The translations under genes were made by a program, and so were the position numbers. A stretch of DNA of 64,000 nt from Lophium mytilinum (Eukaryota), in contig MU004184.1 of NCBI GenBank assembly GCA_010093605.1, positions 816,801 to 880,800 on the forward strand. The letters run 5' to 3'. This document shows positions 847 to 24,087 of this stretch, one piece after another. Below the pieces are notes generated by a model that was not told where the DNA came from, did not search any database, and saw only the letters and a program-made list of their open reading frames with translations. Each line of letters starts with the position of its first letter. Within the stretch, counting starts at the first letter, position 1.

Positions 847-1845
847 GCTTCGAGATTTCTGCAACACTCAACTCGACATTGATGGCGCCCTGGCTTTATA
901 AGAACTGTGCCCCTCACTTGAGCCGCAGTACTCCAGCGAGACGCGCCCTCGCTCTCATTTGGACGCTGTGGCGCTTTTGAGGCGCGCCTCGGCCGCCTTG
1001 GCCGCAATAGCTGGGCCAGGGCGCCAATCGGCCACCAGCTGCACGTCGCAGAATCAGCTCAGGAGTCAATCAGGAACGAAGGCGTGCAGACGAATGTCGA
1101 GGGTGGTCTTAAGGCTACTGAGAGCTATGGCGGCGGAGGGGGCGAGTATTGCGGATGTAGTTGTGCCGACGGGTGGAAGAGATCCTGGGAGATTGGGGCT
1201 TCCGAATGAATGAGCTTCTAAAGAAAGTCTTGTCTTCGTCTTTGGACCTGTGAAGGGCGATTGCCTCGAAGTTGAGCGTCTCGATTTCTACTTTCATATG
1301 TCCGATTCTCATCTTGGATAGTGGATATCTTGCAAGGTCTATCTGCGGCCTTGCGATTCTTTTTCCTATACGAGACATGGGGACACTTAATGAGTATGAG
1401 AGATGGAGTTTTGAGTACATTGATCAACGAGTCCGTTAACGAGACGCACTTCTGGTCCTAGGGTACCCATATCACAGTTTATGAAACGAGACGTTTTAAA
1501 AATATTGTCTATTTTTTTGGGGGGTTTTCCTATCTGTTTGGTCTATCAATAATTTGAAACGCTACATCGTTCATACCTGACTGAGTTACAGTTGTCAACA
1601 GGAAGTCGAGACTAATCATGTCCATAACAGCTGTTGAAATAACGTCGGCGCTTGAACATAACGAGACATCGGGGCGTTACATGATGTGGTGAAGTATGAT
1701 TTTGCGAAAAGGAACCATTCCAGAAATCTGTGCTGGGATGCAAAGAAGACAATTGAGACACAAAGTATGCTTGAGGTTCAGAATGTGCGACGTCATGCCC
1801 TTTGCACACCCGGAATTTGGAATGGCAAGAGCTCGAGTGTCGATC

Positions 1846-3729
1846 TCAGAAAGCTGTTCCGTCACTAGCTTTGACGAAGGTGTCCATGTCCCATTCGATT
1901 TCATGCTCAGTAATGAGTGGCATAACGTCAAGTGGATTCTTGAGGTGCCCAACACCATGAGATGAATCTGTTGGAATGTTATTGTATGAAGAAGGGAAGA
2001 GCTTCTTAAAGTATTCCTCGTAAGCAATGATTTTGAAGAACTTGGTGATCTTTGACTGCCGCATTCGCCAGACAGCCGGCCGAGTGATCTCGCCGCGGTA
2101 GCGTCCCTTGGAAAGTTCCCAAGAATTATCCCCACACCAGACGCATCTCTTGGGCTTGATAGAGAGGTAGCCAAGCATATCAGTGATGCGATATTGTCTC
2201 TCACAGAGGACAGGTTCGCAATTGAAGCAATGTGGGTGCTCCACATTGTCCAGGGTAAAGGCGTTTGAGGACCACTTGACTTTCCCAAACTGTGGCACAT
2301 ATCCGTACAATACAGTTTCAAAACTGTCTCGTCGATCTTCAGGGTCGTAAGAGTCCTGTTCTAGACAGTTGCAGTTGAAGCAGTGATCGTTGTCTTCATA
2401 GTCGTCCTCATCGTCGTTGTGCCGGCATCGCTTCTCCTCGAGTTCATCTATCAGTTCCTCTAGTCGCTCTCTGTCAGGCTCACACCAGTCGCAGGAGAGG
2501 GCAATATCATCGATAGGCCAGTTCTCAATGTTGTCACTCGCACGTCGTTTACCGCAAACTTGGCAGCCTTCTTTAGCGTGGATTGGACAGTCATCTGGAG
2601 AGGAACAGGATCGCGAGAAGGTGAGTGTTGCACCTGGCTTGGGATTGTGATTCTCGAAAACGGATTTGATCCGGTTAGGAACATACGGAGCATAGGCTGC
2701 ATCATCATGCACGCGTAGCTTGATGTGCTGAACGTTCTTGCGAGCTATGATACTGAGAATCGCTGACACGACTGGATGTTGCGGGCCATAGAACATGATA
2801 TCCCTAGGACATACGGCTTCGTAGTATCGGTCTGAGGCTGCACAGACGAGGAGATGACGGAGGTTTGGCGCTCGTCGTCCCAAAGCTTTGAGAAAGTGGC
2901 CGACTCGAGAAGATGCTGTGGCGTCTGCATCGGTGACTCGAAAGTAGACACCGATATCCATGAGAAAAGGCATGTATTGGCGGCTGATCGGGAATCGCGC
3001 GAACCATCCGGATGAGCCATCATATCCGGTGCAAAACATCATTCGGTTCCGAGTATACAATATGCTTACGGCTTCGTAGTAGTACCGGCGACAAGTCGAC
3101 AAGATTCCGGTAGACAAGACTACCCTCATTTCTGGGTTGTATTCTGCCTTTCGCAGTTTGCCAAATTGTTCGGCGCCCCTAAATATCGGCAAAGGGGCAA
3201 TGAGAAGCTCTTTGTAGATCATTAGTCGTATCTCCACTGGCAATCTCCCAAAGTGGTCTTCACCCCTCGCAGCGCAAAGCCTCCTCATTCCGGCGTCTGA
3301 CATGGGAGTTCGAGGATCTAGAGACCCGAGCTGAGACTCCATGGCTGAAATCCCTGCATCGTTGTATGCCACGTGAGATTGAAGGGCCGAGATTCTGGAA
3401 GCAAAGAACGATATTTGAGAATCCTGGGAGGCCATTTGAGCTTCGCAAGACGCAACGAGGGGATTGAGGGACGAGAGTCGAGCATCACGCAATGCAATCT
3501 CAGAAGTGAGGGAAGAAGAAGAGGTCCGAGCGCCATCCACTGCCATAGTCGAACTGTTGAAACCCAAGACCGAGGAGTGAGTTCTGGCGCGACGTCGTGA
3601 AGATGTCGCCCTGGGGCTGCGAGCTGGCGAAGCCATCGCTGCGGAAGAGGTGACGCACAGCTTTGCCCAGGTTAGCGAGTGTTGTCCAAGAGCAAATGGG
3701 GATGAAATGAGTGTGGGATAATGGCCCAT
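1846..3729 (-). CDS. Hypothetical protein with F-box-like motif and Cys-rich C-terminus (alternative start 3636)
   Basis: 627-aa ORF. HFGRLPVEIRLMIYKELL followed by ILSTCRRYYYEAVSILYTRNRMMF is the typical fungal F-box-like 'LP.EIR..IY...L...L.TCR..Y.EA..ILY..N.F' signature. Coiled-coil-like N-terminus. Confidence 0.65.
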   Translation of the reverse strand: MGHYPTLISSPFALGQHSLTWAKLCVTSSAAMASPARSPRATSSRRRARTHSSVLGFNSSTMAVDGARTSSSSLTSEIALRDARLSSLNPLVASCEAQMASQDSQISFFASRISALQSHVAYNDAGISAMESQLGSLDPRTPMSDAGMRRLCAARGEDHFGRLPVEIRLMIYKELLIAPLPIFRGAEQFGKLRKAEYNPEMRVVLSTGILSTCRRYYYEAVSILYTRNRMMFCTGYDGSSGWFARFPISRQYMPFLMDIGVYFRVTDADATASSRVGHFLKALGRRAPNLRHLLVCAASDRYYEAVCPRDIMFYGPQHPVVSAILSIIARKNVQHIKLRVHDDAAYAPYVPNRIKSVFENHNPKPGATLTFSRSCSSPDDCPIHAKEGCQVCGKRRASDNIENWPIDDIALSCDWCEPDRERLEELIDELEEKRCRHNDDEDDYEDNDHCFNCNCLEQDSYDPEDRRDSFETVLYGYVPQFGKVKWSSNAFTLDNVEHPHCFNCEPVLCERQYRITDMLGYLSIKPKRCVWCGDNSWELSKGRYRGEITRPAVWRMRQSKITKFFKIIAYEEYFKKLFPSSYNNIPTDSSHGVGHLKNPLDVMPLITEHEIEWDMDTFVKASDGTAF

Positions 3730-14723: not shown

Positions 14724-15928
14724 GCTTGAAACAGCGGCAAATGAGGGTAGGGAAGGAGAGAAGTGGAAGGAAGCGCAAACTTGTAAGCGTTCTAACTACG
14801 TAGACAAAGCCAAGGCAGCTACAAGGACTTAGAGTGGGTCCGGATCGCAGCCCTTAACGGCACAGCAAACAGCCACAGGCCAGGTGGGCCAGGCTAGACG
14901 GTTCATGTTCCAAGGTCTATCGAGTGATGCTAGGCGTAATGGAGAACCGCCGGGAGCCTGCGTTAGCTTATCGAGCAATTATAATTGGATAAGGCCGCAC
15001 AGCACAGCCACATGCTGGGATAGGCCTCACGTTACCAACTATATCTTGAAGCTGTGAAACTTAGAAGGCTATAGGAAATATATTGATAAGTTCCGAGGGC
15101 AGATTTGAAGGCGAAGACATTTGGGACGCGAAGAAGTTCGTGGTGTTACCGACTGCGCACTACGAAGTAATCCAACCTTTCTGACGACTGGCTGGTGGCG
15201 CCACTCAATTGCAAGATAGCTGGTGAGAAAACTGGTTCAAAACATAGCTAAACGGAGGAATATGGTGTTCCGTATTGTAGACGGAGAGAAAACAATGTTG
15301 CTCTAGAGGGAAGACCGGGATATAACGTACTGTGTCTAGCGTCTCCCGCAATGCTGTGTCACGCATCTGAAAAGCACCAAAGTGCTTTCTACGGCAATGC
15401 AACAAACGCAAAAAGGACAACACCTCAGGTCACTTAAATCTGCATTCATATTAAACGTCTTATATTACAGAAAGCGAAGCCAAGAAAGGCTGAAGACAGT
15501 CTATCGACTTTGGGCGACGTCAGAGCACTAGACAAATTGTCACACTCCAAGATGTAAGCAGCGCACAGCAAAATGGGGAACATCTAGTTTGATATTCGCA
15601 GTTGTCTACACTAATAAAAGTATCCCCGGCCAATGAGATGCTACAAAAAGGCTAGCTTAATTCAAAGACCCAAGTTCCGCAAAAGATCCAGAGGTAGAAA
15701 CGCCAGCCCCGCTCAAACAAGAAACTATGGATGTGTCTCCAAGTCGACTATGTTCGAGCCTGATGTTGGAAAAATATCAATGTGAAAGAAAAGTTTTCGT
15801 TGTAAGGGTGATGTGCCGGGAATAGTAGAAGGGAAAAAATAGAAGCACCAGGTCCGTTGTGTTCTTGCCGCATGGTTGCCTAGAAAGATGGCAGCTTTTT
15901 TTCCATGCTTTGGTCCTTATGACGAGGT

Positions 15929-16940
15929 TTAGTTCTCCTCACGCTTGGTCTTGCTGCAAGATTGGCCGGGAAGATGGCAACCCGCTGGGGGGCGGGCCTC
16001 GGCGGCAGCCTCAGCCTCACGCTTTTCCTTGGAGCAAGATTGACCGGGGAGATGGCAACCCGCTGGTCGGCGGGCCTCAGCCTCGGCGGCAGCCTCAGCC
16101 TCACGCTTTTCCTTGGAGCAAGATTGACCTGGGAGATGGCAACCCGCTGGGGGACCAGCCTTGGCGGCAGCCTCAGCCTCACGCTTTTCCTTGGAGCAAG
16201 ATTGACCTGGGAGATGGCAACCCGCTGGGGGGCCGGCCTTGGCGGCAGCCTCAGCCTCACGCTTTTCCTTGGAGCAAGATTGGCCTGGGAGATGGCAACC
16301 CGCCGGCGGGCGTGCCTCAGCGGCAGCTTCAGCCTCGCGCTTTTCTTTGGAGCAAGATTGGCCTGGGAGATGGCATCCTGCTGGGGGGCGTGCCTCAGCG
16401 GCAGCTTCAGCCTCGCGCTTTTCCTTGGAGCAAGATTGGCCGGGGAGATGGCATCCTGCTGGGGGGCGTGCCTCGGCCGCGGCGATGGGCTCAGGATCTA
16501 GATTAGATCAGCTTAACGCTTCTCTTCCTGCTGCAAGATTGACCAGGAAGATGACAACCCCAAAATTTTCTGGTGGCCACAGGCTCAGGGTCTGCCACGG
16601 GTTCAGCCTCGCGCTTGTCCTTGCTGCAAGACTGGCCCGGAAGATGGCAACCCCAGAACTTTCTGGCGGCCTCAGGCTCAGGGTCTGCCACAGGCTCAGC
16701 CTCGCGCTTGTCCTTGCTGCAAGACTGGCCTGGAAGATGGCAACCCCAGAACTTTCTGGTAGGAAGGGGTTCGGGCTCAGGGATGGGCATAGGCTCAGCC
16801 TCGCGCTTGTCTTTGCTGCAAGACTGGCCTGGGAGATGACAACCCCAAAATTTCTTACCAGCTACGGCGACGGGCTCCGGAAGAGCCGCACGCTTGTCCT
16901 TGCTGCAAGACTGGCCTGGGAGATGGCAACCCGCTGGGGG
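15929..16940 (-). repeat. Coding tandem repeat array of 12 GCHLPGQSCS units
   Basis: Units about 78-84 bp in 15929-16497 (7 copies), about 87-93 bp in 16520-16858 (4 copies), plus 1 copy near 16890-16945. Confidence 0.95.
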
Positions 16941-17009
16941 GCCGGGGATCGCGAGAGCGTGGGCGCTGGCAGCTAGGATAGCGGCGGCGATGACGGCGGT
17001 GAACTTCAT
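15929..17009 (-). CDS. ppg1: Alpha-factor-like peptide pheromone precursor, predicted spliced isoform (exon 1 17009-16859, exon 2 16497-15929; 239 aa; 8 x [R/G]PPAGCHLPGQSCS-type repeats)
   Basis: Signal peptide MKFTAVIAAAILAASAHALA. Donor G|GTAAGA at 16858 and acceptor CTGATCTAATCTAG|AT at 16498 give the in-frame junction AVA-D-PEPIAAAEARPPAGCHLPGQSCSKEKR. Seven repeats in exon 2 with KR sites and EA/AA/KA dipeptide spacers, ending KTKREEN-TAA. The CHLPGQxC core resembles Aspergillus PpgA WCHLPGQGC. Confidence 0.8.
16503..17009 (-). CDS. ppg1: Alpha-factor-like pheromone precursor, unspliced (intron-retained) isoform; 168 aa; 1 x GPPAGCHLPGQSCS + 4 x KFWGCHLPGQSCS
   Basis: Uninterrupted ORF with signal peptide, Kex2 KR sites and XA/XP dipeptide spacers (EAEPVADPEPEA, EAEPMPIPEPEPLP). 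Stop TAA at 16505-16503. Confidence 0.85.
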   Translation of the reverse strand: MKFTAVIAAAILAASAHALAIPGPPAGCHLPGQSCSKDKRAALPEPVAVAGKKFWGCHLPGQSCSKDKREAEPMPIPEPEPLPTRKFWGCHLPGQSCSKDKREAEPVADPEPEAARKFWGCHLPGQSCSKDKREAEPVADPEPVATRKFWGCHLPGQSCSRKRSVKLI

Positions 17010-17148
17010 GTTGATTGGTATCGAGGGAGTGTGTTTGAAAAAGTGAGTGATGAAGAGTTTGTCTTCGTGTAATGAGTGGTGTGTCTGTCGGAAGAGAGGG
17101 ACTTGAATGATCTGGATGAGTTAGAAGTCGAGGAGCAGCGTAGAAAGG

Positions 17149-17155
17149 TTTTATA
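17149..17155 (-). promoter_or_regulatory. Putative TATA box of the pheromone precursor gene
   Basis: TATAAAA on the minus strand about 140 bp upstream of the ATG at 17009. Confidence 0.55.
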
Positions 17156-17178
17156 TGGAAGAAAGGACCTTGCCGACC

Positions 17179-17627
17179 GTCAATAGCGGAATATAAAGCC
17201 GAATAAGGGTTGAAGGCTCTCAATAAAGACTCGAATAAGCTAGAGGATCCTAGGGGCGAGAGGTACCGGGCCAATAGGAAAGTTGAGTTCTGGATCGTCT
17301 CTCAATAAGGATCAATAGTGGCAATGAATAGGCCAGTGAGCCGGGGTACTCGCGGGCTCCGGGGGGCAAAGGCTTCTTCGGCAGATGCTCCTGACCACGA
17401 GGACGGCGCTGCTACTAGTCGATGAGGGGCGGTACTCGAAGAATGGATGAATTAGCGCCTTATGGACCGAGTTCTTGGACACCTTGGACAAGAGGACCTT
17501 TGAAGAAAGAAGATGATAATCAAAGGTATAAGTAGGATAAAGGAATAGGAAGCAATGGACGGTTGGTGGTGAGGAAGGCAAACTTAGAAGCATTACCGCA
17601 TTTGGGTTTCAATAAGCTCTCAATAAG
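17179..17627 (-). promoter_or_regulatory. Cluster of six co-oriented TCAATA[A/G] (minus strand [C/T]TATTGA) motifs, candidate MAT1-1-1 alpha-box binding sites
   Basis: TCAATA starts at 17180, 17220, 17302, 17312, 17609 and 17620. Resembles the CTATTGAG motif described for Eurotiomycete MAT1-1-1. Confidence 0.6.
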
Positions 17628-18422
17628 AATCTGGAAGTCTTGGCATCCCCGAGGTCGCAACGCCACCCAGAAGCCGCGTTCGAGCCATTCAAGTCAAGGC
17701 TATAGAAAAATCTTTGATTCTAGATCGGCAAGTGGGTTGCACTGTGTAGGGTACACGCAAATGCCGACGAGCGCGTGCTGTTAGTCCGTCCACGTGGCAG
17801 CCGGGACTCGTGGTTCGATTTGAAGAGCAATCAAATAATTACAGGCTTCTAGAATATCGTACTACTTGTTGATACAGCCACATCTAGAGCATGCAAGCGC
17901 ATTGGCTGCCGTGGAGGTGTGCGTTTCCGTGGGTTCGGTCAGTGGAGCACTTGCCGAGCATTCGGATGAGGCTGGTTATGAAAAAGACGCAGTATTACGA
18001 CGAAATATAGACTGAGCAAACTCGTGCAGGCTCAAAATTCTCATTTGGATAGATTGATGTTGCGCATTTAATGAAAAGAGGAGATTGTGACGACGAAATG
18101 GCGCGAGGCACCACGAGACAGCCATGTAAGATCTTGCACGAATTTGATTATCTGATAAGCACACGTCATGGCTAATTGCCATGCATGACAAATGTCGTAG
18201 AGGACTGAGGCATGTTGGTGGTAGGAAGAGAGCGTGAAGCATCGAGGAGGAGGGCGATCAGGATTCGAGGCGAGCACGTGAGGTGAGGTTGTAAAAAGCT
18301 CGGCCTAGTAAACCGCACGGACCACATCCCACGCGACTTGTTCGGCAGGGACGTAGCATCCGCTCGACGGCGTTGAAGGACGGCAAACAACTTTCCAGCG
18401 AGCGTCGAGCAAGAACGTGGCG

Positions 18423-20530: not shown

Positions 20531-23500
20531 TTACAATTGCTCAATTCCCTTTACGAGTCTCTCTAGACTCTCTTCTCCACCACTCTGCATGAAACCCTGA
20601 ACAATCCTCGACCTAGCAATCAGTCAGTAACGTGCTATATGCCAGCTCCACGCAAAGAAGTTGAACTCACATATTCCCCACCTTCTCAGCCCCCATTCGA
20701 GCCTCCAGTTCTCGACTCTTAACTGCTGCGACCTCCAAGACACCCTCTGGCACCTTCGCAAGCCTCGCAACATTCAGCCCGTAACTCCGATGCGCGACCC
20801 CGTCACCGACCTCGTACAAAAACACAATCTCCTTTCCACCCTCCCTACTCTCCTCAAACTTAACATGCACATTCTTCAACTCCCCCGCAAAGCGTTCCTC
20901 AATCCTGCTCATATTCTGATAATGCGTGATGAACAGCGTCAACGCCTGGATATCTCTAACAACATAATCCAGCACCGCCTCCGCGATAGCCACACCGTCG
21001 AACGTGCTGGTTCCGCGCCCGAGCTCATCGAGAATGACGAGCGAGCGCTTCGTAGCGGATTTCAGGATGTCCGCCGTCTCGGACAGCTCGACCATGAAGG
21101 TGCTCTCGCCCTTGAGCATGTTGTCGAAGGCGCCCATGCGGGTGAAGACGGCGTCGAGCATGCCGAGCTTGGCGGATTCGGCGGGGACGTAGCTGCCGAT
21201 TTGGCCCATGATGGCGATGAGGGCGCCGGAGCGGACGTAGGAGGACTTGCCGCCCATGTTGGGGCCTGTGATGAGGAGGGCGCGCGTGCCGTCGTTGCGG
21301 AGAGAGAGAGGATTCGGCACATAGGAGTCGAGGAGGAGTTGCTCTACCATCGGATGCCGTCCGCCGACGATGTCAAGCTCGATTTCGGAAGTGAAGGATG
21401 GCTTGACGTAGCCGGGCTGCGAGGCCAGTGCCGCGAGGGAGAGGAGAGCGTCCAGGGTCGCGAGGGCATGGACACAGTCGCGAAGTGTCTGGTACTTTGC
21501 TGCAATCTCGTCGAGGAGGGAGAGGAAGGCGGCATCGCAGGCGGCAGCGAGGGCCTCCTTGTGTTGATCACGCTCTCGTACCATTTTGACAACTTCTGGA
21601 GTGTGGAATCGAGACACTGCCTTAGTTCCACTGATCTTGGCCCACGATGCAGGGACGTTCTTAATCTCGTTATTTTTGACCTCGATGAGATATTCAATGC
21701 CGGAGACGGTGACATAGTCAACTTTGCCCTTCTTGATCTTCGAGGCAGCTACCGCGCGGTGCTCGTTGAGCTCGTGCTCGACAGCTGCAATGCCCATTTT
21801 ACGTTCCATTACGTCCTCGGTTTCGTGCTCCTCGCGGAAGAAAGAGTACTTGTCGTCTTCCTTTGCCGCCTGTGGGTTGATCTTCTCCAGAAAGCTTACG
21901 ATGTCATCCGATATCTTTGGCAGACTTGCAATAGCATCATTGATGACAGAGGACGAGAATCCAGCCTTATCAGGGGTGTCCACATGCGCGTACTCGTTGG
22001 CAATTCGTTGAAGTATCTGGAGCGCTCCAAGAAGCTCGGACCGGGTGCACTTTTTGTAATAGATGCGAATCAAAACTTTCTCGAGATCGACTTTGATGTT
22101 TCTGAAAAGATGTTTCAGCTTATCAACGCGGATAGTATTCTCACCATCCTTCAGCTCTTCGACAGCCTCAATCCGCTGCTCTAATCGGGTTTTATCGAGA
22201 AGCGGCCGGCCTACCCAATTTCTGAGCAACCGGCGCCCGAATCGGGTTCTCGTCCTGTCCATGGTCCAGAATAAGCTACCTTTCTCTGTGTGGTCTGTCT
22301 GATTTTGATAAATCTCCAGACTCGACAAAGTGTTTCCGTTAAGAAGCATATGTGATCGTGCGCTGAACGGCTGGAAGTATTTTGTAAGATCGAAGACATG
22401 CTCTAGTCCATACTCACTCATGTGAGTGATCATTGCGGAAAGGCATATAGTGACGTGCTCAGAGAGCTGGTGAGACTGGTCGAGAACAGCTCTTTTGCTA
22501 TCAGAATCCGCATCAACGCCTTGTTTTACTTTACCAGCGTAGAAGTTGGTAATGTGACTGTAAGACTGCGCAGCCATTGTCTTCGGTTTATCGACTCGTT
22601 CTACTCGGGCTCTGTCGCCGAAGACATTCGTTTTACTTGCCGCAAGGTGCTGGATGAGCTTGTCCGTAGCTTTTGATAGATCTCCCACGATCAAGAACTC
22701 GCATGGAGCAATGTGAAGGAGTCGTGTCTCAATCTCACTCCTCATGAAGCCGTCCTCAAAGTCATCGTATATGATATCGCCTGTAGCAGGCTGAACAGCA
22801 ATGATGCCCACTTGGACCTTTTCGTCAGTACCCCATCCTTTGGCATTGCTTTCCGTGAGACACAACAAGTATCCGGTGGTTGGTGCTGCGGCACCGGCTG
22901 CTGTATCCGGTCCCTCCAGAGTTTCTACATCATCAACGTACGTGCCTTTCGTGTAGAGGTTTGTTAGTTTGCGCACGAAAGGGGCATTTCGATTATCTCC
23001 GGCTGCTTTCAGGGCTGCTGTTTCGATCTGACGAACAACGCCAACTTTATGATTTGCCTTGACTAGTCGTTTGACATGGACCTGGAGTCGATGCACGGGA
23101 AAACTTGCAGAGGCGAACCGGTTGATGTGAGCTTCGGACGGATCTGATTCAGATTAGCACGACTATTGTTAGCTTCATGAACGAAGATGAATGATAGAAC
23201 GTACGTTCATCGTATCTGAATTTGCCAGGAATGCAGACAATGCCTAGTTCCTTCGAGGCAATTCTTGCATCTTCTCCAAAGAACTTGAATTTGTATCCGA
23301 CCTCCATGACGATAATAGCATCCAGATGCTTGTTTTTTATCTCCAGGTATTGTTTCTCCATTGGTGTCAACTTTGAGCCATTCTTCTTTGCGGCAGCGCC
23401 CTTCTTTCCTTTTGTTGGCTTCGGAGGTACCTCCTCTTCTTCGCCTTCGTCGTCTTCGCCCTCTGGCCCTTGAGCGCGTTCCTCCGTCTCCTCTGATATG

Positions 23501-24087
23501 AAATTATTCCTCCGCTTGATCTCCGCAATGCTGTCCGGCCTGCCTAACCTCTTGACAAATCGCTCATGGAGCTTTTCCTTGCGCTTTCGGTCTTCCAGGG
23601 TATCCTCATCCTCGTTCTCATCTTGAACTGGGGAGCTAGAGAATATGTATTTGGAGGTCCTAGCTGAGGCTTCAGGTCGTTTCGCTGCATTGACACCCGC
23701 GGCGGACGCCTGGCCCAGCGAATTGCGATGCCCCGTAGATTCGTCCGCCATTATTCCGTTCCTCCCATTCGCCTTGTTGCCATCACTGACAATCTGTCGC
23801 GGTTTTTTGGGTACCGGAGATAGATCCTCGTCATCTTCCTCGTCTGGTATCCGCTTCCGTCGGGAGGGAATCTTCTGTGGTATCACAACATCTTCTTCGT
23901 CGGAGCTCGCAGTTAACGCGTCGTTTCTCGACTCGTTAGCGGGCGACGACGGAGAGACGGTCGGTGGCTTTGGGGCGGCGGTAGTTTTGGGCGTCGCAGA
24001 AGGTTTGGGCGTGAAGAAACTTGATATGGATTGCTGCTTCTTTGCCTGAGATGATGTGGGCTGCGACGAGCCTTTCGGGGGGGCCAT
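20531..24087 (-). CDS. MSH3: DNA mismatch repair protein MSH3 (MutS-beta)
   Basis: Exons 24087-23205, 23143-~20671, ~20612-20531. N-terminal PIP-box-like [17 protein letters not shown]...[32 protein letters not shown] (Walker A), [33 protein letters not shown]. Confidence 0.95.

Follow-up and report, generated by a model that had tools for sequence, protein, structure and literature searches.

Alpha-type pheromone precursors are textbook cases of polyprotein processing and are normally treated as simple one-product genes. A locus of Lophium mytilinum raises the question of whether splicing could decide which peptides such a gene delivers. It lies on the minus strand of a stretch of 64,000 nucleotides (nt) of contig MU004184.1 (assembly GCA_010093605.1, positions 816,801 to 880,800), hereafter the window, to which all coordinates refer (Table 1). 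Judged by its sequence, it is the gene for an alpha-type (ppg1/ccg-4/MF-alpha-like) secreted, Kex2-processed pheromone precursor of a Mytilinidion-like dothideomycete. A third of its repeat array (4 of 12 units) sits inside an intron, and on balance we hold it probable that a main spliced mRNA and a minor mRNA retaining this intron yield two constrained peptide classes from the one gene.

The obvious open reading frame (ORF) of the locus extends from 17009 to 16503 and encodes 168 amino acids (aa), with a signal-like N-terminus, one GPPAGCHLPGQSCS repeat, four KFWGCHLPGQSCS repeats (KFW units hereafter) and the end RKR-SVKLI followed by TAA. A second frame, open from 16507 to the TAA at 15931-15929 and devoid of an ATG of its own, carries seven repeats, four of them headed by RPPAG, two by GPPAG and one by RRPAG, each followed by CHLPGQSCS. 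The 10-residue core GCHLPGQSCS is common to all 12 repeats and a Kex2-type site (KDKR, KEKR, KTKR or RKR) comes after every one of them, the intervening spacers being of the X-A/X-P type trimmed by Ste13-like enzymes, e.g. EAEPVADPEPEA and EAEAAAEA. The N-terminus, MKFTAVIAAAILAASAHA, combines on simple inspection a basic start, a hydrophobic core and an A-x-A motif before the likely cleavage point, and the N-termini of homologs are similar. A degenerate version of the core pattern matched 12 times in the window, always within 15962-16928, and any match at all was found in 0 of 100 shuffles. The donor G|GTAAGA, with its GT at 16858-16857, opens an intron whose length of 361 nt is of the form 3n+1, and joining 16859 to 16497 produces an open coding sequence (CDS) of 720 nt and 239 aa with eight PPAG-type repeats, no Trp and no internal stop, in which 10 X-A/X-P dipeptides follow one another from the first KDKR to RPPAG across the junction. 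A first-pass annotation made from the letters of this DNA had described the ORF, the second array, the donor, the acceptor and the stop, all of which we find where it had placed them, and had foreseen an in-frame junction preserving the XA/XP register, as the open 239-aa frame and its ten consecutive pairs confirm.

Evidence for splicing came from the Logan contigs of four sequencing runs, compared with the window at a likeness threshold of 90%. One run (X1) is recorded as 'RNA?', its kind being guessed; X2 is a moss metatranscriptome, and X3 and X4 are soil metatranscriptomes. The X1 and X2 contigs represent the same organism (X2 being 100% alike) and those of X3 and X4 related organisms, 90-95% alike. 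Removal of the 361-nt intron is seen in 4 of the 4 runs. The joint 16497->16859, which skips 361 letters and reads CT..AC on the plus strand, i.e. GT..AG on the strand of the gene, has a depth of 42.8 and a side of 29 in X1, and a depth of 5 and a side of 53 in X2, where it is 100% alike. In X3 and X4 a single letter stands between the two parts of the joint, 16498->16861 (sides 57 and 152); placed on codons, this joint proves to be that of X1 and X2, differing in one synonymous substitution, GCT->GCC. RNA contigs of all four runs cover exon 1, and exon 2 is covered in parts. The intron is real, spliced as predicted at 16859|16497 and common to the relatives; use of the same junction by the X1/X2 and X3/X4 organisms supports an intron older than their split. 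Besides this joint and that of a 57-nt leader intron, none was reported in the four runs, nor was any joint corresponding to a 20-nt GTTAAG..TAG mini-intron across the stop, a candidate we rejected as far too short and in the wrong frame. Plus-strand ORFs over the array (225, 192 and 256 aa) were likewise set aside as by-products of repeat composition, the splice orientation putting the transcript on the minus strand.

The intron-containing form is also represented in X1. Three overlapping contigs (16469-16632, 16608-16725 and 16701-16888, depths 14.2-25.3) cover the whole intron with 0 differences and extend 30 letters into exon 1 and 29 into exon 2; they are therefore not the excised intron, which would have no exon flanks. 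The 57-nt leader intron of the same X1 RNA has no contig cover (its bin depths of 6.19 and 33.3 equal the exon bases multiplied by 41.8), which argues against genomic DNA or a general carry-over of pre-mRNA in this run and for retention specific to the 361-nt intron. The annotation had expected both RNA forms, and the spliced one was present in every run and the intron-containing one in only one of the four. Missing intron cover in X2, X3 and X4 is uninformative, as only contigs at low depths (5-8) and at the likeness threshold of 90 were available.

The repeats inside the intron look like sequence that has been kept for its coding content. Among the four KFW units 7 of 39 nucleotide columns vary, all of them at third positions and all synonymous; their six pairs add up to 26 synonymous and 0 nonsynonymous differences (proportions pS 0.59 and pN 0), with no replacements or indels. 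For the seven exon-2 units pS is 0.31 and pN 0.03, with one P->R replacement, and their cores show the synonymous differences (GGT/GGA, CTC/CTT, CCC/CCA, TCC/AGC) from which the annotation had surmised selection on the peptide. Relative to the X3/X4 organisms, 11 of 14 changed codons over the CDS are synonymous, as are 8 of 11 within exon 2, counts taken from the differences listed and with 8 further differences outside them; exon 1 has two listed differences, both synonymous. A neutral simulation was scaled on the divergence of the 3' untranslated region (UTR) to X4, where 18 substitutions and 3 indels are found in 229 nt. The four peptides and their frame stayed intact in a fraction of 0.0002 of the trials at half this divergence and of 0.023 at a quarter, figures that are rough and assume an intron older than the X3/X4 split, as deduced from the junction shared with those organisms. 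The peptide-coding capacity of the intron thus bears a clear signature of purifying selection.

The intron is best read as having arisen from coding repeats. Over its last ~45 nt and the beginning of exon 2 it can be aligned, at a net shift of 1 nt, with an ordinary KDKREAEPVADPEP spacer, and branch site, acceptor and stop therefore derive from a former spacer. The donor sits in the spacer-to-peptide transition ahead of the first KFW unit, and these two features taken together suggest that the array was once continuous and that four of its units were intronized. It was also longer, since the 3' UTR holds a decayed 13th repeat with 26 of 34 nt identical to the last one (score 36, reached by 0 of 500 shuffles, maximum 28). 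Three further introns were seen in the window, of 57, 58 and 61 nt, and the 361-nt one is roughly six times their length.

In the scheme we propose, the ancestral gene would have had an uninterrupted array of some 12 repeats processed by Kex2 and Ste13, and the 361-nt intron would have formed later out of four of them. The main spliced mRNA would specify the signal peptide and eight x-PPAGCHLPGQSCS units, and the minor intron-retaining mRNA, read through from exon 1, would specify one PPAG and four KFWGCHLPGQSCS units before stopping just ahead of the acceptor, the last of these units keeping its K-R site and so being releasable. Two Cys-loop classes would result, alike in their GCHLPGQSCS core and different in their N-terminal parts, in a ratio set by the efficiency with which the long intron is removed, and both peptide sets would be maintained by purifying selection. 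What we infer is that the retained form is translated and secreted, as well as the precise mature ends and any difference in activity at the receptor. The mature ends are not fixable by sequence: for the intronic units the X-A/X-P register would leave x[RK]KFWG..., and for the exon units X-A/X-P trimming could reach GCHLPG.... RPPAG would be protected, as dipeptidyl peptidases of the Ste13 type make no cut ahead of a proline. The central claim of the annotation, two peptide classes separated by splicing, stands as regards the intron, the in-frame junction, the two RNA forms and the constrained coding, its functional side being a matter of interpretation.

The two forms also have to be seen in the light of the transcript start. 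In X1 the gene has a long leader, joined to the coding exon by the joint 17111->17169, which skips 57 letters, reads CT..AC on the plus strand and has a depth of 41.8 and a side of 132. The contig concerned has a recorded size of 1275 nt, of which letters 197-328 lie on 17169-17300 and some 947 nt lie upstream of 17300. The spliced leader would measure 1181 nt and contains 16 upstream ATGs. The ends of the relatives' contigs, at 17114 and 17100, would fit a short leader without ATGs. The long isoform could be poorly translated and driven from a region shared with the divergent gene for Met-tRNA synthetase. The Ste12-type element TGAAACA occurs 10 times in the window against 8.75 expected, the nearest copies being at 14727 and 22111 and none in the promoter.

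Several points weigh against a productive second form. Intron cover is confined to X1, one run of four, whose kind is merely guessed to be RNA, and holes in cover prove nothing, which makes the argument against DNA drawn from the 57-nt intron only a moderate one. The exon flanks of the intron contigs, at 29-30 letters, are 1-2 letters under the 31-letter bridging threshold, yet this is what a fork in a k=31 graph is expected to give. The X1 depths do not sum (exons ~42-43, joint 42.8, intron 14-25), so the ratio of isoforms is not quantitative beyond the spliced form being higher. The RNA showing retention may be poorly translated on account of its 1.18-kb leader, and nonsense-mediated decay could act on it, since more than 770 nt come after its stop. 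Lastly, the constraint was measured among paralogous copies and part of it may predate the intron.

These points lend themselves to the most serious alternative, which we regard as possible although clearly less probable than two products: the intron would be constitutive and its retention noise, i.e. precursor that is unspliced or slow to splice, or else a non-productive isoform, the 239-aa PPAG-type precursor would be the sole functional product and the KFW units a recently silenced relic. It agrees with the spliced form being the only one in three of the four runs and the deeper one in the fourth, with the ATG-rich leader of the retaining RNA, and with the expectation that a long intron would splice less efficiently in a fungus with introns of ~60 nt. 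The junction, moreover, lines up with a spacer that has degenerated and bears a frameshift and a stop, and splicing could rescue a broken array. Against it stand the four units of 13 codons, with zero replacements and zero indels among them despite 7 sites of synonymous difference. The intron predates the X3/X4 split, and over that time neutral decay would in nearly every case have destroyed one unit or more. The repeat in the 3' UTR did decay in this way, 8 of its 34 nt being changed and its frame lost, whereas the last KFW unit retains its K-R site despite diverged surroundings. Nor does the 57-nt intron of the same RNA show any retention.

The relatives of the gene bear on what the peptides might do. 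A phmmer search with the 168-aa product against 1.84 billion representatives gave 98 matches at E<=1e-3, 23 of them at <=1e-10 and the best at 2.3e-21, none exceeding 61% identity, and that over short stretches. Repeated C-x2-3-[PGIV][GDM][QMK]-x1-2-C units followed by K-x-K-R were found in 62 of the 102 proteins examined, and three of ten clusters looked up are named pheromone precursors: Escovopsis ccg-4 (P0131, E value 4.8e-17), Fusarium pheromone precursor 1 (P0149, 9e-11) and Neurospora ccg-4/ppg-1 (cluster P0206, 1.3e-4). With these and with yeast MF-alpha the gene shares the secretion signal, the tandem peptides followed by K-x-K-R, the X-A/X-P spacers and a two-Cys core around P-G-Q, and it differs in an array that is partly intronic and in two peptide classes separated by splicing, of which we found no case among the described alpha-type precursors. 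Neither frame product matched the Pfam families MF_alpha and MF_alpha_N (PF04648 and PF05436) at E<=0.01, and the gene is not filed under them; an Atlas cluster carrying these families (score 0.83) and another named 'Pheromone 1' (score 0.86) serve as leads only. Matches of the 168-aa ORF to Toxin_21 (E 2.5e-7) and Cys_Knot_tox (5.9e-4) were dismissed as spurious, no single stretch having passed alone. Protein searches returned no close relative, with 5 matches among 8000 candidates scored (best 37% identity) and 3 short matches among 1663, and the collections searched held no protein near-identical to the 168-aa or the 239-aa product. The gene seems to be unannotated.

As to Trp, splicing in this organism removes every copy that bears it. 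The separation is not kept in the X3/X4 relatives, in which the first exon-2 repeat reads RWPAGCHLPGQ (codon 62, CCC -> TGG, window 16463-16465) and the last unit stays RPPAG; the annotation's division of Trp from no-Trp peptides by splicing thus holds here and fails there. The Pro -> Trp replacement is a full three-base change, four residues before the first Cys, and the changes surrounding it are synonymous. This points to fast or selected change, or to shuffling of repeats, on the N-terminal side of the peptide, which looks like a fast-evolving, specificity-determining region. Several homologs have only a non-aromatic residue before the first Cys (G-C in P0006 and P0132, R-C in P0141, H-C in P0003, I-C in P0222), and the nearest in motif, P0006, reads G-CHLPGQSC; W-G-C is found also in P0168 and P0142. 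From these comparisons the Trp-less peptide may be a normal agonist, a regular ligand of its receptor.

Whether the two forms are regulated is a further matter. We put forward only tentatively, and with less confidence than we give to a constitutive intron, a switch by mating type, stage or promoter (a short TATA-driven against a long ATG-rich leader) that would deliver a Trp-bearing or a Trp-less peptide acting differently on the receptor, as agonist against partial agonist or antagonist, or on self against partner. The more specific version contained in the annotation, in which the retained mRNA makes the true, Trp-bearing mating pheromone and the spliced mRNA a Trp-less antagonist, decoy or second-receptor ligand, seems to us unlikely. 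Both RNA forms exist and both peptide sets are constrained, and in most relatives the first Cys is indeed immediately preceded by an aromatic residue. Yeast alpha-factor analogues shortened at the N-terminus, moreover, act as antagonists. But the Trp-less mRNA was the form seen in all four runs and was deeper than the intron form in X1, a dominance hardly expected of a mere modulator; several relatives have non-aromatic versions only, and the spliced mRNA of the X3/X4 organisms itself bears the Trp unit RWPAG. The Trp form as 'the' mating pheromone is thus not supported. That the whole pattern is an artefact, be it an assembly chimera, a collapse of alleles or paralogs, or genomic DNA posing as retained RNA in X1, is very improbable: tandem repeats are prone to mis-assembly and X1 is only guessed to be RNA, but its contigs agree with the window (0 differences) all through the intron and past both of its borders with the exons, exon 1 passes straight into exon 2 at the predicted bases in the spliced contigs of X2, X3 and X4, and X1 has two GT..AG joints, which mark RNA-derived sequence, with no cover of the 57-nt intron.

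Exitrons, or intronized coding sequence, and alternatively spliced animal neuropeptide genes of the calcitonin/calcitonin gene-related peptide (CGRP) type offer close parallels to two peptide classes made from one gene, as in all of them the peptides obtained from a polyprotein change with the removal or retention of a coding-derived intron. The length of an exitron is usually divisible by three, and it lies inside one exon; the intron described here, unlike them, is 3n+1 with its own stop, and its retention truncates rather than extends the protein. We know of no fungal pheromone gene of the exitron type. Precursors with mixed repeats (P0001, P0163, P0198 and P0221) likewise hold variants within one protein, and the X3/X4 organisms mix RWPAG and RPPAG in one spliced mRNA. 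Their variants are co-translated in a fixed ratio, whereas here the two classes are mutually exclusive by RNA form, save for the single exon-1 unit.

In agreement with the annotation, which knew of no splice switch in a fungal pheromone gene, the literature searched (titles and abstract openings, outside subscription journals) describes no splicing of an alpha-pheromone precursor, nor do the portions of PMC13037118 and PMC10182648 covered describe splicing of this kind in a pheromone gene. The exact motif CHLPGQSC was not found in that literature. A survey of fungal Kex2-processed repeat proteins (KEPs), PMC6339444, reports an alpha-pheromone type with two Cys from 13 non-Pleosporales dothideomycetes and, from Xylona, a motif that contains CHLPGQ; two of its supplementary text files gave no match. 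The pheromone gene described here has the architecture by which KEPs are defined, and the survey worked from predicted proteins and would see one isoform only. What is known, then, is the alpha-type KEP precursor; what is new is a pheromone precursor whose peptide class depends, by our reading, on the removal of a coding intron.

Among the neighbours, a gene for the mismatch-repair protein MSH3 (20534-24087, minus strand) has two introns of 61 and 58 nt. In three tblastn segments its product is 85-97% identical to that of Mytilinidion resinicola and ~81-82% to those of Glonium and Delitschia, its N-terminal 279 residues being only 85% identical to M. resinicola against 97% elsewhere. A DUF3405 gene and the gene for Met-tRNA synthetase are further neighbours. 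A scan of metagenome contigs with the 168-aa ORF produced one locus (L001) out of 248 pattern matches and no ortholog. This locus (1061-1870, plus strand) encodes a Kex2-processed repeat precursor whose signal peptide is 73% identical over 22 residues to that of the pheromone gene; its units, about ten, are of the type F[TV]RH[PA]Y[DN]NGWGSL[PA]GEKR with short D/E-A-rich spacers and no Cys loop. The likeness being limited to the signal peptide, we rejected it as a relative and regard it as an otherwise unrelated repeat precursor.

Table 1. Features of the pheromone precursor locus, in window coordinates.
Feature	Position	Strand	Remarks
Pheromone precursor gene	17009-15929	minus	From ORF reading and RNA contigs
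Long 5' leader exon (run X1)	17169..18247	minus	Upstream end approximate, inferred from RNA contig size
Leader intron, 57 nt, GT..AG	17112..17168	minus	Signals GTCCTT...CTAAC..CAG; contains TATAAA at 17155-17150
Coding exon 1	16859..17009	minus	ATG 17009-17007; signal-like peptide 17009-16956; one GPPAGCHLPGQSCS repeat; KDKR; start of X-A/X-P spacer
Exon-1 GPPAGCHLPGQSCS repeat peptide	16940-16902	minus	
Intron, 361 nt	16498..16858	minus	5' GTAAGA; CTGAT 16511-16507; AG 16499-16498
KFWGCHLPGQSCS copy 1, intronic	16815..16853	minus	
KFWGCHLPGQSCS copy 2, intronic	16716..16754	minus	
KFWGCHLPGQSCS copy 3, intronic	16623..16661	minus	
KFWGCHLPGQSCS copy 4, intronic	16530..16568	minus	Followed by RKR-SVKLI and stop
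TAA stop of the intron-retaining frame	16503..16505	minus	3 bases between TAA and acceptor AG
Coding exon 2	15929..16497	minus	Seven [RG][PR]PAGCHLPGQSCS repeats; KEKR/KTKR sites; EAEAAA-type spacers; TAA 15931-15929
Exon-2 repeat peptides	16465-16427, 16387-16349, 16309-16271, 16231-16193, 16153-16115, 16069-16031, 15991-15953	minus	
Decayed 13th repeat, 3' UTR	15860..15893	minus	Out of frame; would read SCHLSRQPCGK

Neither the 168-aa protein nor one near-identical to the 239-aa product being present in the collections searched, the locus is a warning that annotated genomes may lack the true product of a gene of this type and that surveys of predicted proteins see one isoform. It also catches the intronization of coding repeats in the act, with a former spacer turned acceptor and, as an internal control, a repeat that has decayed, and it offers three testable objects: a pair of synthetic peptides, a receptor and a splice site. 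Provided that both forms are made, the identity of a peptide in fungal cell-cell signalling would be settable by splicing. Should the removal of the coding intron prove to be regulated as well, it would be a fungal counterpart of the alternatively spliced neuropeptide genes of animals, and pheromone specificity could diversify without gene duplication.

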